NCBI GenBank assembly: GCA_902584915.1
Contig: CACIBQ010000001.1
Coordinates: 659 to 64,658 of the forward strand
DNA from: an uncultured Pelagibacteraceae bacterium
GTDB lineage: Bacteria; Pseudomonadota; Alphaproteobacteria; Pelagibacterales; Pelagibacteraceae
Reading direction: 5' to 3'
DNA: 64,000 bases
Positions within the stretch are counted from its first letter, which is position 1. Each line of letters starts with the position of its first letter. Positions 1-17,254 of this stretch are shown one piece after another. The notes beneath the pieces are model-generated. The model was given only the letters and a program-made list of their open reading frames with translations, was not told the DNA's origin and searched no databases. The position numbers were made by a program, and so were the translations under genes.

Positions 1-177
1 AAAATAAGAAATGAACGTAAATTAAATTTTAAAATTGAAATCGATGGAGGAATAAATTTTGAAACTTCTAAAATAGCTATTGAAGCTGGAGTAGATATTT
101 TGGTTTCAGGCACTACAGTTTTTAAAGAAAATAATGGAGATTTAAAAAAAAATATCAAAATTTTAAAACAAATCTAA
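1..177 (+). CDS. rpe: Ribulose-phosphate 3-epimerase, 3' end only (cut by window edge)
   Basis: Frame 1 reads ...FKIEIDGGINFETSKIAIEAGVDILVSGTTVF...KQI*; IEIDGG and AGxDxLVxG motifs; TAA at 175-177; usual rpe-heparinase-purH order. Confidence 0.9.
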   Translation, partial: KIRNERKLNFKIEIDGGINFETSKIAIEAGVDILVSGTTVFKENNGDLKKNIKILKQI

Positions 178-1808
178 ATGTTTATAAAAAGTGCATTTTT
201 AAACTTTGGTTCTATGCTCTTTCAGTTATTAAATCAGTTAAGAAAGATTTATTTAAACTCTCCCATTTATAATAAAAAAATATCAAAAATTGACGATAAG
301 GTTATTATATATAAACCTAGTCAAAGTATTTTAAACTGCTTAATTAAAATTGATAAAAAAAATATAATATTGAAGATTTTTCATTAAATTCAGTTTGGAA
401 GGAATCAATAAATTTAAATAGTAAAAATTTCAAAAAACTTCATAGCTTTTTTTGGTTATTTTCTTTAGATTTAAAATCTTCGAAAAAAATTACCCAAAAT
501 ATAATTTCCAATTGGATTGAAGAAAATTACAAATATAAACAACACATTTGGGATTTGGATATTTTATCAAAAAGAATTATTGCTTGGATTTCAAACTCAA
601 AACTAACTTACGAAAATTCTGAAACTGAATACAAATTACATTTTAATAACTTAATAAAAAAACAAACAAATCATTTAATATATGAAATAAAAAGATCAGA
701 TAAATTAGACGATAAAATAATTGGAAGCACAGCTATAATTTTAGTTGGTTTGACTTATGGAGATGTATTTTATCTTAAATTTGGTATTGATCTTTTAAAA
801 AAAATATTGAATTTTTCTTTGGACTCTAGTGGATTTCCTAAATCTAGAAATCTGAGACAGTTAGTATTATATCTTAAATATTTAATTATAATAAGAGAAC
901 TTTTAAAAGAATCTCAAACAAATATTCCTGAGTTTTTAGATGAAGAAATTTTTTACCTAGGCAAATCATACAATCTTTTATGTAGTAATAAAAAAAAAGG
1001 AATATTATTCAATGGCAACTTCGAAGATTCAAATAAAGAATTTGATGATTATTTAAATTTTCACAAATATAAATTTAAAGATGATACAAATGAGGCAGGA
1101 GGATATGTCATTTTAAAAAATAAAAAATCCTCATTAGCTATTGATCTTGGCTTAGTTCCTGAAAAAAAATTTTCAAAAGACTATCAAGCTGGAGTGTTTT
1201 CTTTTGAATTTAGTTTTTCAGGTGAAAAAGTAATTACAAATTCAGGTTATTTTCAAAATCATAAGCACCAGCTGAATATTATATCTAAATCAACAGCTAC
1301 ACATTCTACGTTAATTTTAAATAACTCTTCCTCAGTAAGATTTCAAAGAGATAAATATGGACATATGTTGGTAAATAAAAGTTTCAAAGTTTTTAATAAA
1401 GATATTAAATTTGAAAAAAATTTGTGGTTTATAAAAGCTTCCCACGATGCCTATTCTAAGTCTAACGGAGTAATTCATGAAAGACAATTACAATACTTTC
1501 ATGAAAACTGCAAACTAGTTGGTTGTGATAAATTAATAAAAACAAAAAACTTTAAATCTAGTAATTTTGAACTAAGATTTCATCTGCTTCCAGAAATTAA
1601 ATTAACTAAATTATTAAATAATGAGTCTATACTTATTGAAAACAATAATGCTGGTTGGAAATTTACTTGTAAAAATCATAATATAGATATTGAAACCGGT
1701 TTATATTTTGGAAGAAAGAATAGGTATATAGAAAATAAAAATATACTAGTAACTGGATTAACTAATAGTGAAGTGCAAAATATTTTATGGGAAATATCTA
1801 AAGTATGA
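178..1808 (+). CDS. Heparinase II/III family protein, split by a one-base frameshift in an A8 run (355-362)
   Basis: ORFs 178..387 and 555..1808 join into one 543-aa frame if one A is added (..IKIDKKKYNIEDFSLNSVWKE..); C-terminal motifs FSFEFS, ITNSG, STATHSTL, ASHDAY, LRFHL. Confidence 0.75.
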
Positions 1809-3346
1809 AAATTAAATCAGCATTAATTTCTGTATCAGATAAAACTGGACTTAATAAAATTTTAAAAGAACTAAAAAAATATAGAGTACAGCTAATAAGT
1901 TCAGGAGGAACTTATAAAAAAATAAGATCACTAGGATATAATTGTGAAGAAGTTTCAAGTTTTACAAAATTTCCAGAGATTTTGGACGGAAGAGTGAAGA
2001 CTTTACATCCAAAAATACACTCAGGAATACTATATAAAAGAGATAAAAATTCTCATAAAAGAACCATTAAAAAACTTAATTTTAAAAGTATAGATTTAAT
2101 TATTACTAACTTTTATCCTTTTGAAAATTCAGTTAATCTGAAAAAAAATCATCAAGAAATAATTGAAAATATTGATATTGGTGGTCCAACTTTAGTTAGA
2201 TCAGCCGCAAAAAACTATAAAGATGTTGTTGTTATTACGAAGATTGATAGTTATCAAAAATTTATTGATGAGTTAAATTCATTTAATGGAAAAACTTCAT
2301 TAAAATTTAGAGAAAAAATGGCTAGAATTGCTTTTGGAGAAACGGCCAGCTATGACTCGGCAATTTTTAATTATTTTAATAAATCCTTAAAAAAAGAAGA
2401 AATACCTGAGATATTAATTTTCAAAGCAAATTTAATTCAAAAATTAAGATATGGTGAGAATCCTCATCAGCTTGGAGCAATCTATGGTGATAGAGAAAAT
2501 TTTGGATTAAAAAAATTGCAAGGAAAAGAACTAAGTTACAATAACTATAACGATATTTTCGCCTGTTTAAATTTAATAAAAACATTGCCAAAAAATAGAG
2601 GAACAGTAATTGTTAAACATGCTAATCCATCAGGTGTATCAGTTGAGTTTGATCATTTAAAAAGTTATATTTCTGCTATTAATTGTGACCCCGTAAGTGC
2701 TTTTGGGGGAATTTTAGCTTGCAATTATAGAGTTAATTTAAAAATAGCTAAAGAAATAATAAAAAATTATTATGAAGTAATTATTGCAGATGGTTTTGAT
2801 AAAAAATCTATTAAATTATTTAAAAATAAAAAAAATCTCAGATTAATTGACAGTTCACAAACTAAACTTGAGAATTACAATAAAGTATTATCTGGAATAA
2901 AATCTTTATTATTTCAAACTGCTGATAATAAAGTATTTAATAAAAATAATTTTAAAGTTGTTTCAAAAATTAAACCGTCTAAACACTTAATGGAACAACT
3001 TATATTCTCTTTTAATGTATGTCGTTCAGTAAAATCTAATGCAATAGTTATTGCTCAAGATAATAAAACATTGGGTATAGGTTCTGGTCAACCAAACAGA
3101 CTTGACAGCTGTAAAATTGCTGTAGAAAAAATGAAAAGATTTAAACAATTTAATGAAAAAATTCCTATCGTAGCTGCTTCAGATGCTTTTTTCCCTTTTG
3201 TTGATGGAATTGAAAATCTAGTTCAATCAGGTATCTCAGCTATAATTCAACCATACGGTTCAATAAGAGATAGAGAAATAATTAAATTTGCAAATGATAT
3301 GGGAATTGTCTTGATATTTTCAAAAACAAGACATTTTAATCACTGA
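1805..3346 (+). CDS. purH: Bifunctional AICAR transformylase/IMP cyclohydrolase
   Basis: ALISVSDKTG, GRVKTLHP, IDIGGP, LRYGENPHQ, ASDAFFPF motifs. Confidence 0.98.
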   Translation: MKIKSALISVSDKTGLNKILKELKKYRVQLISSGGTYKKIRSLGYNCEEVSSFTKFPEILDGRVKTLHPKIHSGILYKRDKNSHKRTIKKLNFKSIDLIITNFYPFENSVNLKKNHQEIIENIDIGGPTLVRSAAKNYKDVVVITKIDSYQKFIDELNSFNGKTSLKFREKMARIAFGETASYDSAIFNYFNKSLKKEEIPEILIFKANLIQKLRYGENPHQLGAIYGDRENFGLKKLQGKELSYNNYNDIFACLNLIKTLPKNRGTVIVKHANPSGVSVEFDHLKSYISAINCDPVSAFGGILACNYRVNLKIAKEIIKNYYEVIIADGFDKKSIKLFKNKKNLRLIDSSQTKLENYNKVLSGIKSLLFQTADNKVFNKNNFKVVSKIKPSKHLMEQLIFSFNVCRSVKSNAIVIAQDNKTLGIGSGQPNRLDSCKIAVEKMKRFKQFNEKIPIVAASDAFFPFVDGIENLVQSGISAIIQPYGSIRDREIIKFANDMGIVLIFSKTRHFNH

Positions 3347-3684
3347 TTTATCTTGTCTATTTTTGCAGCTAAAACGAAATCACTTTCGTGTAATCCCTTA
3401 ATAGCATGTGTAAATATTTTAATTTTAGCATATCCCCAACCAAACCATATGTCTGGATGATGACCTTCGTCCTCAGCTATTTCTCCAACTTTATTAACAA
3501 AATTTTTACTTTCTATAAAATTTTTAAATTTAAATTCTTTTATTAGATAATAAATTTTGTCATCATTTGCTGTTACTTCCCAACCATCAACCATTTTCAG
3601 ATATTTATGTATTTCTGTTATATCAAAGCCAGGTATTCCACCATCACAAGGTATGCATTTTTTTTTTGATAAATCTTCACTCAT
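3340..3684 (-). CDS. Pterin-4-alpha-carbinolamine dehydratase
   Basis: AEDEGHHPDI, FTHAIKGLHESDFVLAAKID; N-terminal CxPC. Confidence 0.92.
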   Translation of the reverse strand: MSEDLSKKKCIPCDGGIPGFDITEIHKYLKMVDGWEVTANDDKIYYLIKEFKFKNFIESKNFVNKVGEIAEDEGHHPDIWFGWGYAKIKIFTHAIKGLHESDFVLAAKIDKINQ

Positions 3685-3696
3685 AATTTTTTAGTA

Positions 3697-3771
3697 TGGA
3701 GCGGGCAATGGGACTTGAACCCACGACCTTCTCGTTGGCAACGAGACGCTCTACCACTGAGCTATGCCCGC
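3697..3771 (-). tRNA. tRNA-Gly(GCC)
   Basis: Reverse complement GCGGGCATAGCTCAGTGGTAGAGCGTCTCGTTGCCAACGAGAAGGTCGTGGGTTCAAGTCCCATTGCCCGCTCCA: cloverleaf, anticodon GCC, GTTCAAG T-loop, encoded CCA. Confidence 0.98.
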
Positions 3772-3874
3772 TTATTTCAATGATATAATTAAATATTTTT
3801 AGACATTAAATCAACTAAAAACTATATAATTAATTTCAATCATGATTTAACAAAATATAATTTTAATTTTAATT

Positions 3875-5440
3875 TTAAAAATCATCTAACTTATTCAAAA
3901 AATCAAAATAATTACTATAATTTTGGCTACTATTTACTGAATTTTGATATATGGGTTTTTTAACTTGGTACAAACTCACTGTTCTTATGGGTTTTGCAGA
4001 TTTATAAAAATCAAAAATATTCTCATCCCACTTCATATTGCAGAAGTTAAATAATTTCTTTGATTCTTGATGTTTATTTTTTACCAGATCGTCATATTTT
4101 AATTCATAAATAAATTCTCCAAATTTTTTTTTCCAATATTTCATTACGTCTCTATAATTTATGATATACCTTAAAATATTTGTTTCATTATAGCTCCAAT
4201 CCAAATCTTTACTCCCAAAAATATTTTTATAAAGTGAGAGGCAATTATCTTTAATATTTCTACTCGTATGAATTACTCTAGAGTTTGGAAATAATAATTT
4301 AATAAATCCAATCCAATAAAAATTCGGTGGCATTTTATCTATAAATATGTTTTGTTCACTTTTTGAATTATATTTTTTTCCAATTTCGTTTGAAATATGA
4401 ATTATATGATCGTTCATTGTTTTTTTATTTAATAAATTTGATAAAAAGTCTTTATTAAAAATCTTTTCACGTAAATAAATATCTAAAAAAACTGATTCTC
4501 CAAAACCATAAGTATTATCTGCTGATGATAATAATTGATGAACTAATGTAGTCCCAGATCTTGGAAGTCCCACAATAAATATCATTTTTTTTTGAAAAAG
4601 ATCTTTAGTATCTTCTACTTTTAAACTGTAATTATCAAATATTTTTCTTATATTTCTAAATTTTAAAATTTCATTTTTAATAATATTTTTATCAACTTCT
4701 TTGTTTTTGATTTGATTAGCAATTTTAATAAATTCAGCAGATTGAGAGTATTTTTTTTGATCCTCAAATGATTTACCAATAGCAAAGTTAATAAAAGATT
4801 TGTGAAAATCATTAAAATCTAAATTCTTAATTTTATTCAACATTATTTTTTGATGAAAATCATTTAATGCATAGTCAGTGAATGTGCTTAAAACATAGTC
4901 AGTTCCTCCAATTAAAGGAAAAATTTTACTATGTAATAACAAATTTTTTCTAGCAAGATCATAATATTCTTCTTTATTTGTTAGATGACCTAGATCTAAA
5001 TAAGTTTGGCCCAACAATGTTAAAGCATCTGTAAATTTAACATTTTTTTCGCAAACTCTTTTTAAAGCTACTACTGCTTCTTCGTATTTTTGTTGCTCTC
5101 TTTTTAATTTACCAATTACAAATAAAGTATAAATATCATCTTCATTAATTTTAATTGCTTTATTTAAATTTTGTTCAGCTTTATCTAATTCATTAAGTTT
5201 AATTTGAGTTAATGCAATATTAGACTTTAAACTAATTTCATCAGGAAACTTGTTTATACCCTTGATAAAAAAATTTTCTGCATCTTGATTTTTATTCAGC
5301 TTTGATAATGATAATCCAAGTAGATTATAATAAGGCGCTATAACTTCTTCAGAGTTAATCAAAATTTTTGTTTTTTTTACAACTTGATTCCACTTATTTT
5401 CTTTAAAAAGTTTGTCTAGTTCTTGTAATTCTTTATTCAT
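3875..5440 (-). CDS. TPR-repeat sulfotransferase family protein
   Basis: N-terminal TPR helices (YYNLLGLSL, LTLLGQTY); PAPS-binding IVGLPRSGTTL, DKMPPNF, RNIKDNCLSLY, IRTVSLYQVKKPIY. Confidence 0.9.
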   Translation of the reverse strand: MNKELQELDKLFKENKWNQVVKKTKILINSEEVIAPYYNLLGLSLSKLNKNQDAENFFIKGINKFPDEISLKSNIALTQIKLNELDKAEQNLNKAIKINEDDIYTLFVIGKLKREQQKYEEAVVALKRVCEKNVKFTDALTLLGQTYLDLGHLTNKEEYYDLARKNLLLHSKIFPLIGGTDYVLSTFTDYALNDFHQKIMLNKIKNLDFNDFHKSFINFAIGKSFEDQKKYSQSAEFIKIANQIKNKEVDKNIIKNEILKFRNIRKIFDNYSLKVEDTKDLFQKKMIFIVGLPRSGTTLVHQLLSSADNTYGFGESVFLDIYLREKIFNKDFLSNLLNKKTMNDHIIHISNEIGKKYNSKSEQNIFIDKMPPNFYWIGFIKLLFPNSRVIHTSRNIKDNCLSLYKNIFGSKDLDWSYNETNILRYIINYRDVMKYWKKKFGEFIYELKYDDLVKNKHQESKKLFNFCNMKWDENIFDFYKSAKPIRTVSLYQVKKPIYQNSVNSSQNYSNYFDFLNKLDDF

Positions 5441-5460
5441 TTTTGTATCATTGCTGCATT

Positions 5461-6105
5461 ATGGATATATCAAATAATTTGCCAACTAAAATACCTATTT
5501 TTCCACTATCAAACTTTATAGTTTTTCCAGATACTACTGTACCACTTAATATATTTGAACCTAGGTATCTTCAAATGATAAATGACACTATGGCATCAAA
5601 CAGACTTATCGGAATGATACAGCCAAAAAAAACAGGTAATTTAAAAAAGCCAGATTTATTTGATGTAGGTTGTGTTTGTAAAGTAATTAGTTTTAATGAA
5701 ACCGATGATGGCAGATATATAATTATTATTAAAGGTCTTAATAGATTTAAAAAAATCGAAGAAATTGAAAGTACAAAACTTTATAGAGAACTAAATGTTG
5801 ATTATAAACTTTATAAAAATGATGAAAATTTAAAACAAGAAAATTTTGAATTTTCTAAAATAAAAAAAATAATGAATGAGTTAAAAATTTTATTTGAAAA
5901 AAGAGGATTTCAAATAAATTGGAAAGATCTTGAAGAACAAAACGTTTATCAAACATTGTCAGCGCTATCAATGGCCTCCCCATTTTCAATAGTTGAAAAA
6001 CAGATACTTTTGGAAACAAAAAATTTAGAAGAAAGAAAAGTTAAATTTGAGGAAATACTAAGTACTTATAATACAGATTTTACAAATTTAAAAACTGTTC
6101 AATAA
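5461..6105 (+). CDS. Lon peptidase substrate-binding (N-terminal) domain protein
   Basis: IPIFPL, VFPDTTVPLNIFEPRYLQMI, ETDDGRY; ATG at 5461 preferred over TTG at 5443. Confidence 0.9.
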   Translation: MDISNNLPTKIPIFPLSNFIVFPDTTVPLNIFEPRYLQMINDTMASNRLIGMIQPKKTGNLKKPDLFDVGCVCKVISFNETDDGRYIIIIKGLNRFKKIEEIESTKLYRELNVDYKLYKNDENLKQENFEFSKIKKIMNELKILFEKRGFQINWKDLEEQNVYQTLSALSMASPFSIVEKQILLETKNLEERKVKFEEILSTYNTDFTNLKTVQ

Positions 6106-7202
6106 TTTAAATTTCCTTTATTTGCTATATTAATACTAAGTTCTTTTAACTTCTGATTTTTATTTATAAATTCGAAAATTTTTTTCGAAATATTTTTTGG
6201 AATAAAATTTTTATTAAATTTAAAAAATTCGTGAATAAAATCAACTCCAAAAGAAAACATTGAATTATAACTTTTTGATTTTTTTTCAAACTCTTTATAT
6301 ATATGTTTATCAATACTTAATCCTAATTCAATTTTTTTATCCAAAATTTCATCAAGCTTTATTATATCTCTAATTGTCATATTAAATCCCTGTCCAACAA
6401 GAGGATGGATTGAATGAATTGAATCTCCAAAAAAAAGAATATTATTATAATAATATTTTTTTGCTAATCTTAAATTCAAATTAAAACTTTCAATTTTTTT
6501 GTAAGACAATATTTTATAGAGGGGATTAAATTTTTTAATTAATTTAATAATTTCACCACTAGATATTTCTTCTTTTTTTTTAATGTCAAATGAAAAGACT
6601 ACTGAGGTAAACCTGTCTGATAATGGAAGATATGCAATGGGTCCGTATTCTGTGAAGATTTGTGTGGCTCTATTATTTTTTACTTTTGTATGCTCAATTA
6701 TAGTTGTAAATGCTCTGTTGTGATAGTTTTTTGAAATTATTTTTTTTAAAAATTTTTTTGTAAAAAAATTTGAAACTTCACAATTAATAACTAATTTAAA
6801 TTTTTTTTCATTAATTAAGTATTTTAAATTAGAATTTTTTTTTATATACTTAAATGAAATAAATTTATTTCTTTTAATCTTTGACCTAATAAATGAAATT
6901 AATTTATCGTATTTTATCATATTAAAAAGTACGGATGAATTTTTCTTAAATAAAACTTCCTCATTAATTTTTTTATTTTGGATTAAAATCTTTATCTCAT
7001 TTATAGGTTCTGTTTTTTTGTAAATATTTTTAAAATAAATATTTAAATAATTTAAATTATGATTGGTTATACCTAATGTTCTTGTTTTATAATTTGTTTT
7101 CTTAGATTTTATTGAATATATCTGTGTATGAAAATTTTTTTTAGATAAGATATAAGCCAAAATCAAGCTAGTAAGATTATTTCCGATTAGACAAATTTTC
7201 AT
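6099..7202 (-). CDS. UbiH/UbiL-family FAD-dependent ubiquinone hydroxylase (divergent)
   Basis: GPIAYLP, FFGDSIHSIHPLVGQGFNMTIRD; divergent from ftsK as in other alphaproteobacteria; likely start MKICLIG at 7202. Confidence 0.8.
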   Translation of the reverse strand: MKICLIGNNLTSLILAYILSKKNFHTQIYSIKSKKTNYKTRTLGITNHNLNYLNIYFKNIYKKTEPINEIKILIQNKKINEEVLFKKNSSVLFNMIKYDKLISFIRSKIKRNKFISFKYIKKNSNLKYLINEKKFKLVINCEVSNFFTKKFLKKIISKNYHNRAFTTIIEHTKVKNNRATQIFTEYGPIAYLPLSDRFTSVVFSFDIKKKEEISSGEIIKLIKKFNPLYKILSYKKIESFNLNLRLAKKYYYNNILFFGDSIHSIHPLVGQGFNMTIRDIIKLDEILDKKIELGLSIDKHIYKEFEKKSKSYNSMFSFGVDFIHEFFKFNKNFIPKNISKKIFEFINKNQKLKELSINIANKGNLNY

Positions 7203-7265
7203 AAAATTTTTTAATTTTACCAATAATAATTAAATGGTACAAATCAACTGATTTGATTCATTTAT

Positions 7266-9350
7266 ATGAAATTTGCAAATTTTTTAACTAAAACAAAAGA
7301 ATTTTTAATCAGAAGAATTACAGAATTCTTCGGATTAATAGTTATATTCTTTGCTTTATCAATATTAATTTCACTCGCCAGTTATTCACCAGATGATCCA
7401 AATTTTATTATAAGTCATACAAACGAGATACAAAACTTAATGGGATATAAAGGAAGTATAGTTTCTGATTTCCTTTTTCAGTCTGTGGGATTGATAGCTT
7501 TTTTAATACCAATTACTTTATTTTTTTCAGGTATAAATATTTTAATTTATAAAAAACAAATTGTATTTATTGATAATTTATTTTTTTGTATAATTTATAT
7601 TATTCTTGGTAGTCTTTTTTTATCTTATTTTAAAAATGAATCGTTTTTGTTAACTGTTAATGGTAATGGTGGTTTTATAGGATTATTTCTTGAAGATAGT
7701 TTTTTAGCTTCTATTTTAGAAATTAATAACAAAGTTTCATATTATGTTTTAGCTATCATTATTTTTTTTATTTTTTTAAAAAGTATTAATTTTAAAATTT
7801 CTCATACAATAAATTATATAAAATTTTTAAGATCTTTATCTTTTCGTAAAAAAATTAAAAATGTGAATGAAGATAGTTATTTAAAAGAAAGTATCTATAA
7901 TCAAAACTTAAAAGAAGATAAGAGAGTACAAGAAAATTTACCATTTGAAAATAAAACTAATAATGATATTAAAAAATTTATTCTTCCAAGTTTAGAATTA
8001 CTTAAATTGCCATCTAAAAATGAAAAAATTGCAAAAAAAAATGAAAATATTAATGAAGAATTTCTTGAAAAAGTATTAATGGACTTTGGAGTTGAGGGTA
8101 AGATAAAAAAAATAAATTATGGTCCAGTGGTAACGCTTAATGAATTTGAACCAGCCGCTGGGGTTAAAGTTTCAAAAATAATTAATTTATCTGAAGATAT
8201 AGCAAGAAATACTAGCTCTGAATCTGCTAGAATTTCAATTATTCCAAGCTCTAACAGTATAGGAATAGAGCTGCCAAACATAACTAGAGAAAATGTTTAC
8301 CTAGGAGAAGTTATTAAAGACTCTCAATTTAAGAAAAAAGATATCAAACTACCAATAGCCTTAGGTAAAAGTATTTCAGGAAACCCTATCATTGGTGACC
8401 TAAGTACAATGCCACATCTTTTAATTGCTGGTACAACTGGATCTGGTAAATCCGTATGTATTAATACAATAATATTATCTTTGTTGTATAGACATACGCC
8501 TGACAAATGTAAATTCATTCTTATAGATCCAAAAATGTTAGAACTTTCTACCTATGAAGGTATTCCTAATTTATTATGTCCTGTAATTACAGAAGCAAAA
8601 AAAGCAGCTTCTGTTTTAGGCTGGGTCGTAAAAGAAATGGAGAATCGGTACAAATTAATGACTAAAGTTGGTGTAAGAAATATAGATGGATATAATTCTA
8701 AACATAAAACTTTTATGCCTTACATTGTAGTGATCGTTGATGAAATGTCTGACTTAATGTTGGTATCTGGAAAAGATATTGAAAGTTATATTCAAAAACT
8801 TTCTCAAATGGCTAGAGCTGCAGGTATACATATTATAATGGCAACTCAAAGACCGAGTGTTGATGTAATCACTGGAACTATAAAAGCAAATTTTCCAACT
8901 AGAATCTCATTCCAAGTATCTTCAAAGATTGACAGCAGAACAATTTTGGGTGAGCAAGGAGCTGAACAACTTTTAGGTAAAGGAGATATGTTATTTATGT
9001 CTTCAGCAAATAAAATAACAAGAATACACGCTCCTTTTGTTACAGAGGATGAAATTGAAAAAATAAATAACTTCTTAAGATCTCAAGCGGAACCAGATTA
9101 TGTTGATGAAATCTTAGAGTTTTCAGAAAATTCAGATATTGATACGGAAAATTCTGAAATGAATGATAAAGATGAGCTTTATCAAAGTGCTTTACAATTA
9201 GTAAAAAGTGAAGGAAAAGCTTCAACTTCTTTTCTACAAAGAAAACTTCAAATTGGATACAACAGGGCAGCAAGAATTATTGATATGATGGAAGAAAATG
9301 GAGTAGTTAGTAAAGCAAATCATGTTGGTAAAAGAGAAATTCTTAAATGA
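7266..9350 (+). CDS. ftsK: DNA translocase FtsK
   Basis: N-terminal TM segments, MPHLLIAGTTGSGKS, DPKMLELS, ATQRPSVDVITG, gamma domain LQIGYNRAARIID. Confidence 0.98.
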   Translation: MKFANFLTKTKEFLIRRITEFFGLIVIFFALSILISLASYSPDDPNFIISHTNEIQNLMGYKGSIVSDFLFQSVGLIAFLIPITLFFSGINILIYKKQIVFIDNLFFCIIYIILGSLFLSYFKNESFLLTVNGNGGFIGLFLEDSFLASILEINNKVSYYVLAIIIFFIFLKSINFKISHTINYIKFLRSLSFRKKIKNVNEDSYLKESIYNQNLKEDKRVQENLPFENKTNNDIKKFILPSLELLKLPSKNEKIAKKNENINEEFLEKVLMDFGVEGKIKKINYGPVVTLNEFEPAAGVKVSKIINLSEDIARNTSSESARISIIPSSNSIGIELPNITRENVYLGEVIKDSQFKKKDIKLPIALGKSISGNPIIGDLSTMPHLLIAGTTGSGKSVCINTIILSLLYRHTPDKCKFILIDPKMLELSTYEGIPNLLCPVITEAKKAASVLGWVVKEMENRYKLMTKVGVRNIDGYNSKHKTFMPYIVVIVDEMSDLMLVSGKDIESYIQKLSQMARAAGIHIIMATQRPSVDVITGTIKANFPTRISFQVSSKIDSRTILGEQGAEQLLGKGDMLFMSSANKITRIHAPFVTEDEIEKINNFLRSQAEPDYVDEILEFSENSDIDTENSEMNDKDELYQSALQLVKSEGKASTSFLQRKLQIGYNRAARIIDMMEENGVVSKANHVGKREILK

Positions 9351-13821: not shown

Positions 13822-14337
13822 ATGACAACCATTGTATTAGTTAGAAAAAAAAATCAAGTAGTAGTGGCTAGTGACGGCCAAGTCAGTATGGGAAATACTG
13901 TTATCAAGAAAACCGCAAATAAAGTAAGAAAGATTGAGAAAAGAAATGTGATTGCTGGCTTTGCTGGTTCTACTGCAGATGCACTAACATTGTTTGAAAG
14001 ATTGGAGTCTAAACTAGAAAAACATGCTGGAAATCTTGCCAGAGCAGCAGTTGAATTAGCCAAAGATTGGCGAACAGATAAATATTTAAGAAGATTAGAG
14101 GCGTTGATGGCAGTAGCTGATAAAGAAAAGAGTTTTATTATTTCGGGTACTGGAGATGTATTAGAGCCTGAAGGAGACGTAATTGGTATTGGTTCAGGAG
14201 GAAACTATGCTTTAGCAGCAGCTAAAGTTTTAATGAACAATGAAATGTCTGCAGAAGAAATTGCAAAAAAAGCTGTAGAAACTGCAGCTGAGATTTGCGT
14301 GTTTACAAATAATAATATTTCGGTTGAAAAAATATAA
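13822..14337 (+). CDS. hslV: ATP-dependent protease peptidase subunit
   Basis: MTTIV N-terminal Thr, [35 protein letters not shown]. Confidence 0.98.
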
Positions 14338-15704
14338 TGGATAAATCAAACGTAACAACGCTAGTTCCTAAAGATAAAAAAGAAAATAAAAATACTCTTT
14401 CCGATTCATTGTCTCCTAGAGAAATAGTTTCCGAATTAGATAGGTTTGTTGTTGGACAAGATAAAGCTAAAAGAGCAGTAGCAATTGCTTTAAGAAATAG
14501 ATGGAGAAGACAGGCTATTGAAGGGGAGATGAAAGATGAAGTTCTTCCTAAAAATATACTTATGATGGGTCCTACAGGAGTTGGTAAAACTGAAATATCA
14601 AGAAGATTATCAAAATTAGCTGAAGCACCTTTTGTAAAAGTTGAAGCAACAAGATTTACAGAGGTTGGATATGTAGGACGAGACGTTGAACAAATAATCA
14701 GAGATTTAATTGAAATTGCTATTGCAATGGAAAGATCAAAAAAAAGAAAAGAAGTACATGCCAAAGCTCAAAAGCTTGCTGAAGAAAGAGTTTTAAATGC
14801 ATTAGTTGGAAATAGCGCAAGTGTTGCTACAAGAGAAAGCTTTAGAAAAAGATTAAGAAATGGTGATTTAGATGAAAATGAAATAGAAATTGCAATCAGT
14901 GAAAATAGCCAAATGCCTTCTTTTGAAATTCCTGGTATGCCTGGAGCAAATATTGGAATGATAAATATTTCTGATGCCCTGGGAAAATCTTTAGGACAAA
15001 AACCAAAAAAGAAAAAAATGTCGGTAAAAGAGTCTCACGAAATTTTAATTAACGAAGAGTCAGATAAGCTTATAGAAGAAGATAAAATAATTAAATCATC
15101 TAAACACTCAACTGAAAATAATGGAATAGTGTTTCTTGACGAAATAGATAAAATTTCAGCGAGAACAGATAGAGTTGGTGGCGATGTATCTCGAGAAGGT
15201 GTTCAAAGAGATCTTCTTCCGCTAATTGAGGGTACAACTGTTAATACAAAATATGGCCCTATAAAAACTGATCATATTTTATTTATTGCATCGGGGGCTT
15301 TCCAACTTGCCAAACCTTCAGATTTATTACCAGAGTTACAAGGAAGATTGCCGATTAGAGTTGAATTAGATGCATTAAATAGTGAAGACTTTAAAAGAAT
15401 TTTGAAAGAACCGGATAACAGTTTAATAAAACAGTATAAAGCACTTTTAAAAACTGAAAATGTAGAGTTAGAATTCAGCGATGACGGAATTGACTTAATA
15501 GCCAGCATAGCAAGTGAGGTTAATAACACAGTGGAGAATATAGGCGCTAGAAGACTACACACTATTATAGAGAGAATATTAGATGAAATTAGTTTTACAG
15601 CCTCTGATAAATCAGGAGAAACTGTATTAATAGACTCCGATTATATTAAAAAACATATCGGAGAACTTGTTAAAGATACTGACTTATCAAAATTTATTTT
15701 ATAA
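14337..15704 (+). CDS. hslU: ATP-dependent protease ATPase subunit
   Basis: [48 protein letters not shown]. Confidence 0.98.
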
Positions 15705-16254
15705 TTTCATACTCAAAATTCTGAGTTTCTTCATTAACTTGAATTTCTTTAGCACCGTTTTTAAGATGAAAATTTCTTGCCATTTCTGTTAATGGAGAAA
15801 GAGTAACTAACCTATTTAAATGGTTTGATTTTTTTATCATTTTAAATACCTCTTTAACAATTAATTTTCCTCCACCTTTTTTATTTGACCAAACAGTATA
15901 TGCAATTGCTATTTGTCCGACATTTTGATCTCTAGTAGCACTTTGTAAAAAAGCATCTCTACTAAATAGATCTAATTCATGTACTGATTTGGGTATTTGA
16001 TTAGTAAAAGCAAAACACATAACAGCGTGAATTTCATTTTTATATTTAACCCCAAATATTTTTCTTCCATAATTAGTTCTAAACTCATTATCTAATTCAG
16101 GTCTCACTGGATCTTTCTCTGTTTCACATTCTTTTAATTCAACTAGCTCTGAACCTTTTACCCAATCAAAAAAATTCTTAATATTTTTATTTAGATCTTT
16201 CTTGCTTTTTCTGAACCTTGCCTTGATATTTCTAGATACTTTTGCTTTAATCAC
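15694..16254 (-). CDS. Uncharacterised GNAT-fold protein resembling a minimal malonyl-CoA decarboxylase catalytic domain
   Basis: [36 protein letters not shown]; GTG start overlaps the smr stop; ORF is solid, function is inference. Confidence 0.6.
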
Positions 16255-16666
16255 TTTTTTTCTTTAAAATTATATCAAAATTACCTTTTGATGACATTTT
16301 AATAGATTCAAAATCTATTTTCAAAATTTTATTCATTAAATTTTTATTTTCTTTAATATAATTTGGAACAGAATATTTTAATATACTTAAATCTTTAGAT
16401 TGATATGGATCGTCTAAATTCTTTGATCTGCTACCCTTTCCTGTAATGATATTAATTTTTCTTACACCTTTTTCAAAACTTGATAAAATAAACTTTTCAA
16501 TTTTAATATTTGCTTCTTCTAAACTATAACCGTGCAAATCTATAATTTTTTCTATATATGAAAAATCTTTTTTCGTAGATTGTACATCTTTATCTTGTAT
16601 TGCTTCTTTGGAATTAACAAATTTTTCCCAATCTTTTTTATCTTTATTTGATAATTTTTTATTCAA
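16247..16666 (-). CDS. Smr/MutS2 C-terminal domain protein
   Basis: IDLHGYSLEEA, IITGKGSRS. Confidence 0.9.
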   Translation of the reverse strand: MNKKLSNKDKKDWEKFVNSKEAIQDKDVQSTKKDFSYIEKIIDLHGYSLEEANIKIEKFILSSFEKGVRKINIITGKGSRSKNLDDPYQSKDLSILKYSVPNYIKENKNLMNKILKIDFESIKMSSKGNFDIILKKKSD

Positions 16667-17254
16667 TTAAACTTCAGTTTTAATTAATTGCCAATTTGGA
16701 TTTTGAGACCTAATATTTCTAGAAAACTTCCAAGTATCGTTTACTCTTTTTATTTTGTGTGGATCTCCAGAAATAATTTTATTTTCTTTATCTTTGATAC
16801 AAGTGATTATTTCACTTATAAAATTAACACTTACTTCTAACAAGTCTTTGTTTTGATTATGATCTTTAATTTCGGCGGAATTAATCCCTATGAATGTTGT
16901 TTCATTCTTAAGTTGTTTTGTTGATCTTTCTTTAATCGCTTCATTAAACGAATTGTACACATCTTTATTTAGCAGCGTTTTGATTTCACTTATTTTGCCG
17001 TTAGCAAACGAAATAATGATTGTTTCGTATGCAATTTGTGCGCCTTTTAAAAATTCTTTTTTTGCATTTTCATCAAACTCGTATATTTCTTTTTTTACAA
17101 CTGGTTTTTTAAATTCAAAATTGTTGGAGAAGCTAGATGGTACATCTTCTTCATGACCTGTTTTTTTACCTAAGATTCCTCTTAATCTTAGAAAAATAAA
17201 ACCTGCTATCATTGCAAGTAAAATAATGTCTATGTATTCGAAGCTATAATTCAT
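16667..17254 (-). CDS. Tim44/TimA family adaptor protein
   Basis: LRLRGILGKKTGHE, FLKGAQIAYE, DTWKFSR, PNWQL. Confidence 0.92.
   Translation of the reverse strand: MNYSFEYIDIILLAMIAGFIFLRLRGILGKKTGHEEDVPSSFSNNFEFKKPVVKKEIYEFDENAKKEFLKGAQIAYETIIISFANGKISEIKTLLNKDVYNSFNEAIKERSTKQLKNETTFIGINSAEIKDHNQNKDLLEVSVNFISEIITCIKDKENKIISGDPHKIKRVNDTWKFSRNIRSQNPNWQLIKTEV

Follow-up and report, generated by a model that had tools for sequence, protein, structure and literature searches.

The window analysed here, a stretch of 64,000 nucleotides from an uncultured member of the Pelagibacteraceae (SAR11), encodes on its minus strand a free-standing protein of 186 amino acids, named here mini-MCD, which probably acts as a cofactor-free decarboxylase of malonyl thioesters, carried either by CoA or by the acyl carrier protein (ACP). 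This reading, to which a probability of about 0.7 is assigned, relies on the Ser-His-Tyr machinery that the protein appears to share with malonyl-CoA decarboxylase (MCD) and with the CurA loading domain, both its activity and its substrate being deduced from these relatives. Judged by its sequence, mini-MCD is the catalytic core of MCD at the size of a normal GNAT protein, with the catalytic dyad and the supporting tyrosine retained. The gene and the motifs involved are the following:

15694..16254, minus strand: mini-MCD gene, stand-alone 186-residue GNAT protein of the MCD clade
16099..16113, minus strand: DPVRP motif, residues 48-52, aligning with (A)VHPV/I where the catalytic domain of MCD begins ("HPVK" in human MCD)
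15865..15900, minus strand: β4 and GNAT motif A or pyrophosphate loop, residues 119-130, aligning with FYSIS...G..LIK of MCD
15793..15804, minus strand: TLSP motif, residues 151-154 (codons ACT CTT TCT CCA)
15751..15771, minus strand: FHLKNGA motif, residues 162-168, containing His163
15709..15720, minus strand: NFEY motif, residues 179-182, paired by hhalign with "NYxY" of MCD

The active site and its relation to MCD

The initial annotation had described this protein as a miniature MCD-like GNAT that keeps the motifs of the Ser-His dyad, and the two strings that it quoted are present verbatim in the 186-residue translation. When human MCD is numbered through the chain of structure 4f0x (offset 35), Ser153 aligns with human MCD Ser329 and CurA Thr355, His163 with human MCD His423 and CurA His389, and Tyr182, the last residue of NFEY, with human MCD Tyr456, which is the second Tyr of NYxY in the hhalign alignment. 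In MCD, Ser329 and His423 are strictly conserved and their mutation cuts activity, and Tyr456 positions the catalytic His (Froese et al., PMC3701320). Conservation was counted in 354 distinct family sequences, with per-column totals of 340-346. Ser153 is found in 336 of 340 (99%), His163 in 333 of 341 (98%) and Tyr182 in 329 of 341 (96%), which bears out the earlier claim that the dyad is conserved. In the same set, Cys80 (98%), Trp122 (99.7%), and Asp48 and Arg51 (both ~98%) are nearly invariant, and Tyr119, Trp122, Gly127 and Gly129 each reach at least 97%. In A1, an alignment and profile of 49 diverse members of the family, the invariant positions are D48, R51, C80, P88, Y119, G129, T151, S153, A159, H163 and N166.

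The order of the motifs is that of MCD: (H/D)PV, FYSIS/YTVWS, the G-loop, TLSP, FHLxNGA and N(Y/F)xY. His163 occupies the site of the general-acid Tyr of ordinary acetyltransferases, a replacement that has been reported for the decarboxylases, in whose clade the general-base Glu of GNAT enzymes is also unconserved (PMC3701320). In mini-MCD, therefore, a GNAT fold is combined with a His and Ser dyad instead of the Tyr/Glu pair of acetyltransferases. The pyrophosphate loop reads K-K-G-G-G-K in this protein and K-G-A-G-R in the family consensus, and it fits the Q/R-x-x-G-x-G/A pattern of motif A. What mini-MCD shares with canonical GNAT N-acetyltransferases (PF00583) is the fold and this pyrophosphate-binding β4-α3 loop.

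The differences from MCD (MatA, MLYCD, EC 4.1.1.9; PF05292 and PF17408; structures 2ygw, 4f0x, 4ksa, 4ksf and 4ks9) are several. The homologous GNAT core is 20-23% identical over ~155-170 aligned residues, but mini-MCD lacks the N-terminal helical oligomerisation domain (PF17408), by which MCD forms dimers or tetramers, and has a basic helix of only 35 residues in its stead. It also lacks the helical insert between β5 and β6, which in MCD consists of three to five poorly conserved helices (PMC3701320), the GDxSxxGxxQS loop before the last strand, and the C-terminal helices. Only 7 residues separate TLSP from FHL, compared with ~65-90 in MCD, and Ser153 is 10 positions from His163. The initial annotation had placed the two motifs fewer than 10 residues apart instead of about 90 and had reported the N-terminal helical domain as missing, all of which agrees with these alignments. 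The motif A loop is of canonical GNAT length, without the 5-residue insertion of MCD. The spatial adjacency of Ser153 and His163 is to be expected from their homology with the MCD dyad.

The family to which mini-MCD belongs is large and has escaped curation. More than 8000 clusters are formed at 90% identity and 586 at 50% identity (E < 1e-3), the latter all of ~140-200 amino acids, and no member longer than ~230 amino acids is found among the 150 best family representatives. That so many clusters share invariant motifs is the reason why the open reading frame (ORF) is taken to be a genuine gene. No curated family, published paper or assay was found for these proteins, which are nameless in Pfam, NCBIfam and PHROGs, although they are among the commoner small proteins of surface-ocean metagenomes and are common to SAR11 and its phages. 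Scans of the mini-MCD protein against NCBIfam and PHROGs gave no family match, and the Pfam scan gave none to PF17408 or PF09500, nor any to PF00583 even at E = 1. The protein alone matches PF05292 with E 0.0015 and 18.7 bits, below the gathering cut-off of 23.2.

Profile comparisons are far more sensitive to this relationship. Searched against the PDB, the A1 profile matched MCD entries only, five structures with E from 5.7e-7 to 6e-4, headed by 4ksa (5.7e-7) and followed by 4ksf, 4f0x, 2ygw and 4ks9. The match falls into two pieces, one running to TLSP and one at FHLxNGA, and the stretch of MCD between them amounts to 65-90 extra residues. When A1 was aligned by hhalign with 30 proteobacterial MCDs taken from genomes, the probability was 97.1% in local and 98.8% in global mode, with E from 6e-11 to 8.5e-16, and residues 24-186 of mini-MCD were paired with residues 161-409 (of 433) of MCD. 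According to these comparisons, the likeness to MCD is far above the level of chance, and mini-MCD is homologous to MCD, yet lies beyond the curated boundary of the PF05292 family. A single-sequence phmmer search of the PDB gave just chance matches to NTF2-like proteins (E ~1).

The AlphaFold2 model computed with A1 (pLDDT 93.9, pTM 0.84) shows a standard GNAT β/α core preceded by a helix at the N-terminus (residues 3-34). The first 13 Foldseek matches of this model are MCD chains, followed by the GNAT_L domain of CurA, in line with the GNAT fold close to MCD and CurA that had been proposed initially. The structural-match scores are these:

SxtA decarboxylase domain: 15.2 (rmsd 2.0, 142 residues aligned)
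GphF GNAT-like decarboxylase: 14.5
CurA GNAT_L: 14.3
MCD: 13.9 (20-23% identity)
Ordinary acetyltransferases: 13.7 or less (6-16% identity)

Structure thus separates decarboxylases from acetyltransferases by a small margin, and it is the sequence that indicates MCD alone. The N-terminal helix belongs to an extension that is specific to SAR11:

16150..16254, minus strand: SAR11-specific N-terminal extension, residues 1-35, helix predicted at 3-34

This extension is rich in Lys and Arg (12 basic and 2 acidic residues) and is kept among the SAR11 copies, whereas viral homologues begin at about residue 19-25. It is possible that the basic helix docks an acidic ACP or the membrane.

Proposed reaction and role in SAR11

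In the proposed reaction, the phosphopantetheine arm of malonyl-CoA or malonyl-ACP would bind along the split between β4 and β5, with the pyrophosphate of the substrate resting on the KKGGGK loop. Ser153 and His163, the latter held by Tyr182, would polarise the thioester carbonyl and, once CO2 has left, would protonate the enolate, so that the product would be acetyl-CoA or acetyl-ACP. If mini-MCD is a decarboxylase, the MCD reaction requires just ~140 residues of a plain GNAT fold, and the family would offer a minimal scaffold for the mechanism as well as a reference for the origin of MCD and polyketide loading domains from acetyltransferases. By descent, the protein may be either an intermediate between GNAT proteins and MCD, as the initial annotation suggested, or the product of a secondary reduction.

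A first parallel is provided by the loading domains of polyketide and toxin synthases, namely CurA GNAT_L (2ree/2ref), GphF (6mfc) and SxtA (7uci). They are of the same GNAT size class and have the same dyad of His and Ser/Thr with its supporting Tyr (PMC3701320). From a malonyl-type ACP thioester they produce an acetyl-type primer for a ketosynthase (PMC10127204), and the mini-MCD gene is located near fabB in four SAR11 genera. However, these domains are only 9-13% identical to mini-MCD, without any sequence-level match, and they are fused in cis to the ACP, ketosynthase and methyltransferase of a megasynthase, whereas the mini-MCD proteins are free-standing, of 140-190 amino acids, and belong to primary metabolism and to phage genomes. 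In polyketide loading modules, GNAT-like domains decarboxylate malonyl-ACP and thereby prime the first ketosynthase (PMC10127204; PMC11685415), and the dependence of such decarboxylases on ACP has been described in the same works (PMC10127204, PMC11685415).

A second parallel is purely functional. Escherichia coli without FabH relies on the decarboxylation of malonyl-ACP by MadA, and the resulting acetyl-ACP is used by the β-ketoacyl-ACP synthases (KAS) I/II; malonyl-ACP decarboxylation accordingly rescues E. coli lacking fabH (PMC8666670). The role proposed for mini-MCD is shared with MadA and MadB (YiiD; PF09500), in that acetyl-ACP lets KAS I/II start without FabH (PMC8666670). Nevertheless, the Mad proteins are hot-dog enzymes with a catalytic Asn and are unrelated to mini-MCD, decarboxylation by MadA is not the work of its GNAT domain, and mini-MCD is modelled as a GNAT, which leaves a functional analogy only.

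In the 201 Pelagibacteraceae genomes sampled, where an absence means that a gene was not found in the genomes searched, the A1 profile detects the mini form in 68, distributed over the genera here numbered g1, g2, g5, g7, g13 and g19. No mini-type match at E <= 1e-8 appeared in a sample of 400 genomes drawn from elsewhere in the phylum. In g2, g5, g13 and g19, every one of the 31 loci has the mini-MCD gene directly behind fabA-fabB-fabI and in the same orientation, the distance from fabI being 13-27 bp in g2 and 72-87 bp in g5. It is found in these four genera 0.8 kb downstream of fabB, the sole ketosynthase gene. On the gene tree, the copies of g2, g5, g13 and g19 are basal or paraphyletic to those of g1, which makes the location behind fabI probably the more ancient.

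This linkage acquires interest from the condensing enzymes of SAR11, whose description is based on five genomes (G008, G170, G120, G012 and G020) and on the 201-genome sample. In the five near-complete genomes, PF00109 detects a single ketosynthase per genome, which is the FabB of the fabA-fabB-fabI cluster, and no FabF was detected beside it. TIGR00747 (FabH) has no match in the five near-complete SAR11 genomes, compared with 13 of 14 control genomes. PF08541 (FabH) is matched in 11 of the 201 genomes and in 3 of the 73 high-quality ones, by a sporadic KAS III-like gene, and a FabH-like query derived from SAR11 was found in 1 of 41 genomes of its genus. The Mad family (PF09500) is absent from all 201. 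SAR11 would therefore appear to encode one β-ketoacyl-ACP synthase, FabB, which raises the question of how its fatty-acid synthesis is initiated; no publication discussing FabH in SAR11 was found in the literature searched. The linkage to the fab operon and the apparent lack of FabH, FabF and Mad are new in this analysis, and together they turn fatty-acid initiation in SAR11, the most abundant marine bacterium, into a testable question.

By analogy with these systems, it is tentatively proposed, at somewhat less than even odds, that mini-MCD serves in SAR11 a fatty-acid synthase in which FabB is the one ketosynthase detected, either by supplying its acetyl primer or by adjusting the malonyl pool. 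The fuller version, according to which mini-MCD would be a hitherto overlooked GNAT-type stand-alone malonyl-ACP decarboxylase that makes the acetyl-ACP primer in these apparently FabB-only bacteria, much as polyketide loading domains do, and by means of which phages would seize the malonyl and acyl-ACP pool, is more doubtful.

A different physiological role for the same biochemistry would be that of a plain substitute for full-length MCD, converting free malonyl-CoA into acetyl-CoA for the use of malonate or the clearance of a side product, with no special role in initiation. The nearest sequence relatives of mini-MCD are indeed MCDs, its motif A loop has the canonical form by which GNAT proteins bind CoA, and the mini and full-length forms occur together in none of the 201 genomes. 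Full-length MCD (430-443 amino acids; PF05292, E 1e-76 to 1e-93) is present in g6, g10, g12, g14, g15 and g17 and in seven genomes of g1; in g14, the match is found in 18 of 21 genomes, a tally that includes G068. Among the 36 genomes of g1 (~99% complete), 24 hold the mini form only, seven the full-length form only, five neither and none both.

Yet the genomic settings of both forms argue against a simple exchange. The full-length MCD of SAR11 follows the genes of a TRAP transporter (DctP-DctQ-DctM) and lies beside Dus, as in L101 (G170:C1:433000-443000, 86-5860) and in L095-L100 and L104. This order resembles matPQM-matA of rhizobia, and the SAR11 arrangement looks like a unit for the import and catabolism of malonate; no MatB-like ligase was seen adjacent to full-length MCD in the stretches read. 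In g1 genomes without full-length MCD (G032, G120, G087, G008 and G151), Dus, TauE and HIT follow one another without a gap and the TRAP genes are not adjacent. Because the locus is clean when empty, the transporter and MCD were apparently gained or lost as a whole block, not swapped for the mini-MCD gene, which is linked instead with fabA-fabB-fabI, and the mutual exclusion of the two forms may be a clade effect. The substitute role is regarded as rather less likely than not.

Two further leads were rejected. A second MCD-like ORF of ~182-190 amino acids in g2 (L103, G117:C6, 2960-3508) matches PF05292 weakly (E ~1e-3) and is BirA-like by eye, so that it is taken for a chance match; at loose thresholds, PF05292 yields false positives of this kind. 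TauE is not a shared neighbour, since the TauE adjacent to the mini-MCD gene in g1 and the TauE adjacent to MCD give no BLAST match at 1e-3.

A further alternative keeps the fold and changes the chemistry: mini-MCD might be an acyltransferase that takes acetyl, malonyl or another acyl moiety from CoA or ACP, its acceptor being a sugar, a small molecule, a protein or a base of a nucleic acid; the phage enzymes would then decorate glycans or DNA. The GNAT fold with its intact pyrophosphate loop would suit such an enzyme, and the invariant Cys80 could carry an acyl intermediate. Moreover, in some Atlas clusters of relatives 20-45% of the members carry PF00583, certain phage copies have genes for a glycosyltransferase, a carbamoyltransferase, a radical-SAM protein and an epimerase as neighbours, and the copies of replication modules adjoin a DNA methyltransferase-like gene. 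Against this stand the His in place of the general-acid Tyr, the conserved Ser and Tyr of the MCD and CurA type (compare PMC3701320), and the failure of mini-MCD itself to match PF00583 at E = 1. In addition, the sequence matches in the PDB are decarboxylases only, and the stand-alone SAR11 copies have no neighbours of an acceptor pathway. An acyltransferase is for these reasons considered improbable.

Several observations weigh against a malonyl-thioester decarboxylase that primes fatty-acid synthesis. Phe288 of human MCD, the proposed cradle for the leaving CO2 (PMC3701320), is not kept: its equivalent is Ala118 in mini-MCD, and in the family Ala occurs in 243, Phe in 80 and Pro in 12 of 346 sequences (Ala 70%, Phe 23%). 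The MCD loop with a conserved Asp (Asp404 of RpMCD) is missing in the hhalign alignment, and the extra invariant residues Cys80 and Trp122 (the latter near-invariant), as well as Asp48 and Arg51 of DPVRP, have no conserved counterpart in MCD. In g1, the mini-MCD gene is found in at least eight unrelated contexts. The fabI-pnp junction is variable and receives other genes too, as does the smr-hslU junction, so that the fab linkage could reflect a permissive insertion site. All 24 genomes of g4 and five of the 36 of g1 have neither the mini-MCD gene nor full-length MCD, FabH or Mad; with so many SAR11 genomes devoid of any candidate initiator, the mini-MCD gene is not essential for initiation. 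The data also suggest that few evolutionary events underlie the exclusivity of the mini and full-length forms, since related genomes do not count as independent cases and the flanking genes of the two g1 groups are of low identity (46-59%). Lastly, some phage copies are found among glycan-tailoring genes.

The commonest g1 context (L229, G114, 1292-5435, and nine similar loci) consists of an ScfR-type regulator of short-chain acyl-CoA, a membrane protein of the TauE family, the mini-MCD gene, a haem-binding SOUL protein and a putative carbonic anhydrase (Pro_CA_2). It may be significant, or a coincidence, that an acyl-CoA regulator and an enzyme of CO2 and bicarbonate lie next to a putative decarboxylase.

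Phage copies and exchange with the host

Most of the family is phage-borne and is located in DNA-replication modules, either of the T4 type or of the DnaB type, whereas MCD is found among TRAP or mat genes. The initial annotation had mentioned relatives in marine T4-like phages and had suggested an exchange between host and phage; both points have found support. The T4-like Pelagibacter phage Mosig EXVC030M encodes a homologue of 52% identity between thyX and a gp59-like gene. It was the only match when three family members were compared by tblastn with 50,697 GenBank phage records, cultured cyanophages and other T4-like phages giving none at these settings. In IMG/VR, a scan with the mini-MCD protein gave 80 viral loci and a scan with a distant member of the family (P0250) gave 79, amounting to ~160 contigs. 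The commonest neighbours in the first set are ThyX, gp43 DNA polymerase, the gp59 loader, gp32, an exonuclease and the DNA methyltransferase-like gene. In the P0250 set, the gene comes directly after a DnaB-like helicase in 48 of 78 loci, with primase, DNA polymerase, 2OG-Fe(II) oxygenase, carbamoyltransferase and glycosyltransferase genes nearby. The neighbours in the ESM-Atlas are unnamed clusters, largely of Uroviricota.

In one set of large contigs, the gene is surrounded by radical-SAM, carbamoyltransferase and epimerase genes. A contig of jumbo-phage size (IMGVR_UViG_3300030329_003470, 196 kb) carries at 2790-7917 a mini-MCD homologue whose neighbours encode a radical-SAM enzyme, a carbamoyltransferase of the Nol type and an epimerase of nucleotide sugars. 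Such surroundings, suited to glycan tailoring, differ from the replication modules in which most phage copies are found.

The conserved place in early replication modules suggests that the phage copies are expressed during host takeover. Under the malonyl-thioester decarboxylase reading, the enzyme would drain malonyl units in the infected cell, shutting off or re-routing host lipid synthesis, and a stop of lipid synthesis would spare ATP and NADPH for the synthesis of nucleotides. The gene would then be a widespread auxiliary metabolic gene directed against host lipid synthesis, which to our knowledge has been little documented as a target of marine phages.

In a FastTree phylogeny of 112 sequences with midpoint root, all 32 SAR11 copies form one clade (support 97) with short branches. 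Its sister group consists of a few viral sequences (support 98), and next come a clade of Mosig-like sequences and then the DnaB-linked clade. The SAR11 copies are consequently nested beside viral ones, as expected if genes have been exchanged, and the tree reads as one transfer between a phage and a SAR11 ancestor; the direction from phage to host is suggested by the midpoint root only and is unproven.

Given a family that is predominantly viral, the SAR11 copy might be a passenger left by phages, that is, an insertion, selfish or neutral and without function in the host, at 3' junctions that tolerate such events. The patchy presence in SAR11 would agree with this, as would the at least eight genomic contexts within one genus, often between convergent gene ends. 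However, the 32 sampled copies form a single short-branched clade whose catalytic motifs are intact, four genera share one fixed location behind fabI, and the SAR11-specific N-terminal extension is conserved. The genomes of SAR11 are streamlined, and the retention of the mini-MCD gene in them implies selection. A mere passenger is thus very improbable, and a host function as a putative decarboxylase is preferred.

The gene in its window

The ORF at 15694..16254 (minus strand; 186 amino acids in the list of open reading frames of the window) begins with GTG. The genome from which the window derives is a Pelagibacteraceae assembly of 0.7 Mb that is 61% complete, and around the mini-MCD gene this AT-rich DNA also carries hisH, hisB, hslV, secB, dnaQ and coaE, a composition and gene content that indicate an alphaproteobacterium of the SAR11 type. 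The immediate neighbours are:

16667..17254, minus strand: Tim44-like domain protein, first gene of the local unit (Pfam PF04280, E 1.9e-34)
16247..16666, minus strand: smr, Smr-domain protein (Pfam PF01713, E 8.9e-13)
14337..15704, plus strand: hslU, convergent, its 3' end overlapping the mini-MCD stop by 11 nt

The GTG start lies within the final codons of smr, with an overlap of 8 nt (AGTGATTAA). On the minus strand, the end of smr reads AAA AGT GAT TAA, and GTG ATT AAA is read in the +1 register. Owing to this overlap of stop and start, smr and the mini-MCD gene are probably co-transcribed and translationally coupled. The attachment to the tim44-smr unit and the overlap with hslU that had been described initially are accurate, both upstream genes being on the same strand and the two overlaps measuring 8 and 11 nt. 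RNA contigs from four metatranscriptome runs, which have small word shares and come from other strains, cover the 3' end of hslU to ~15788 and, in part, smr and tim44; the interior of the mini-MCD ORF is outside their coverage.

The order tim44-smr-mini-MCD-hslU occurs in the genome of the window and in one other (G094), and does not represent a conserved unit. Where sister genomes lack the mini-MCD gene (G151, G170, G041 and G120), smr adjoins hslU directly. The junction between smr and hslU is a recurrent insertion spot, and in a further sister genome (G108:C4:11759-15166, 653-1492) it is filled by a gene for a different protein of 279 amino acids, possibly sulfotransferase-like.

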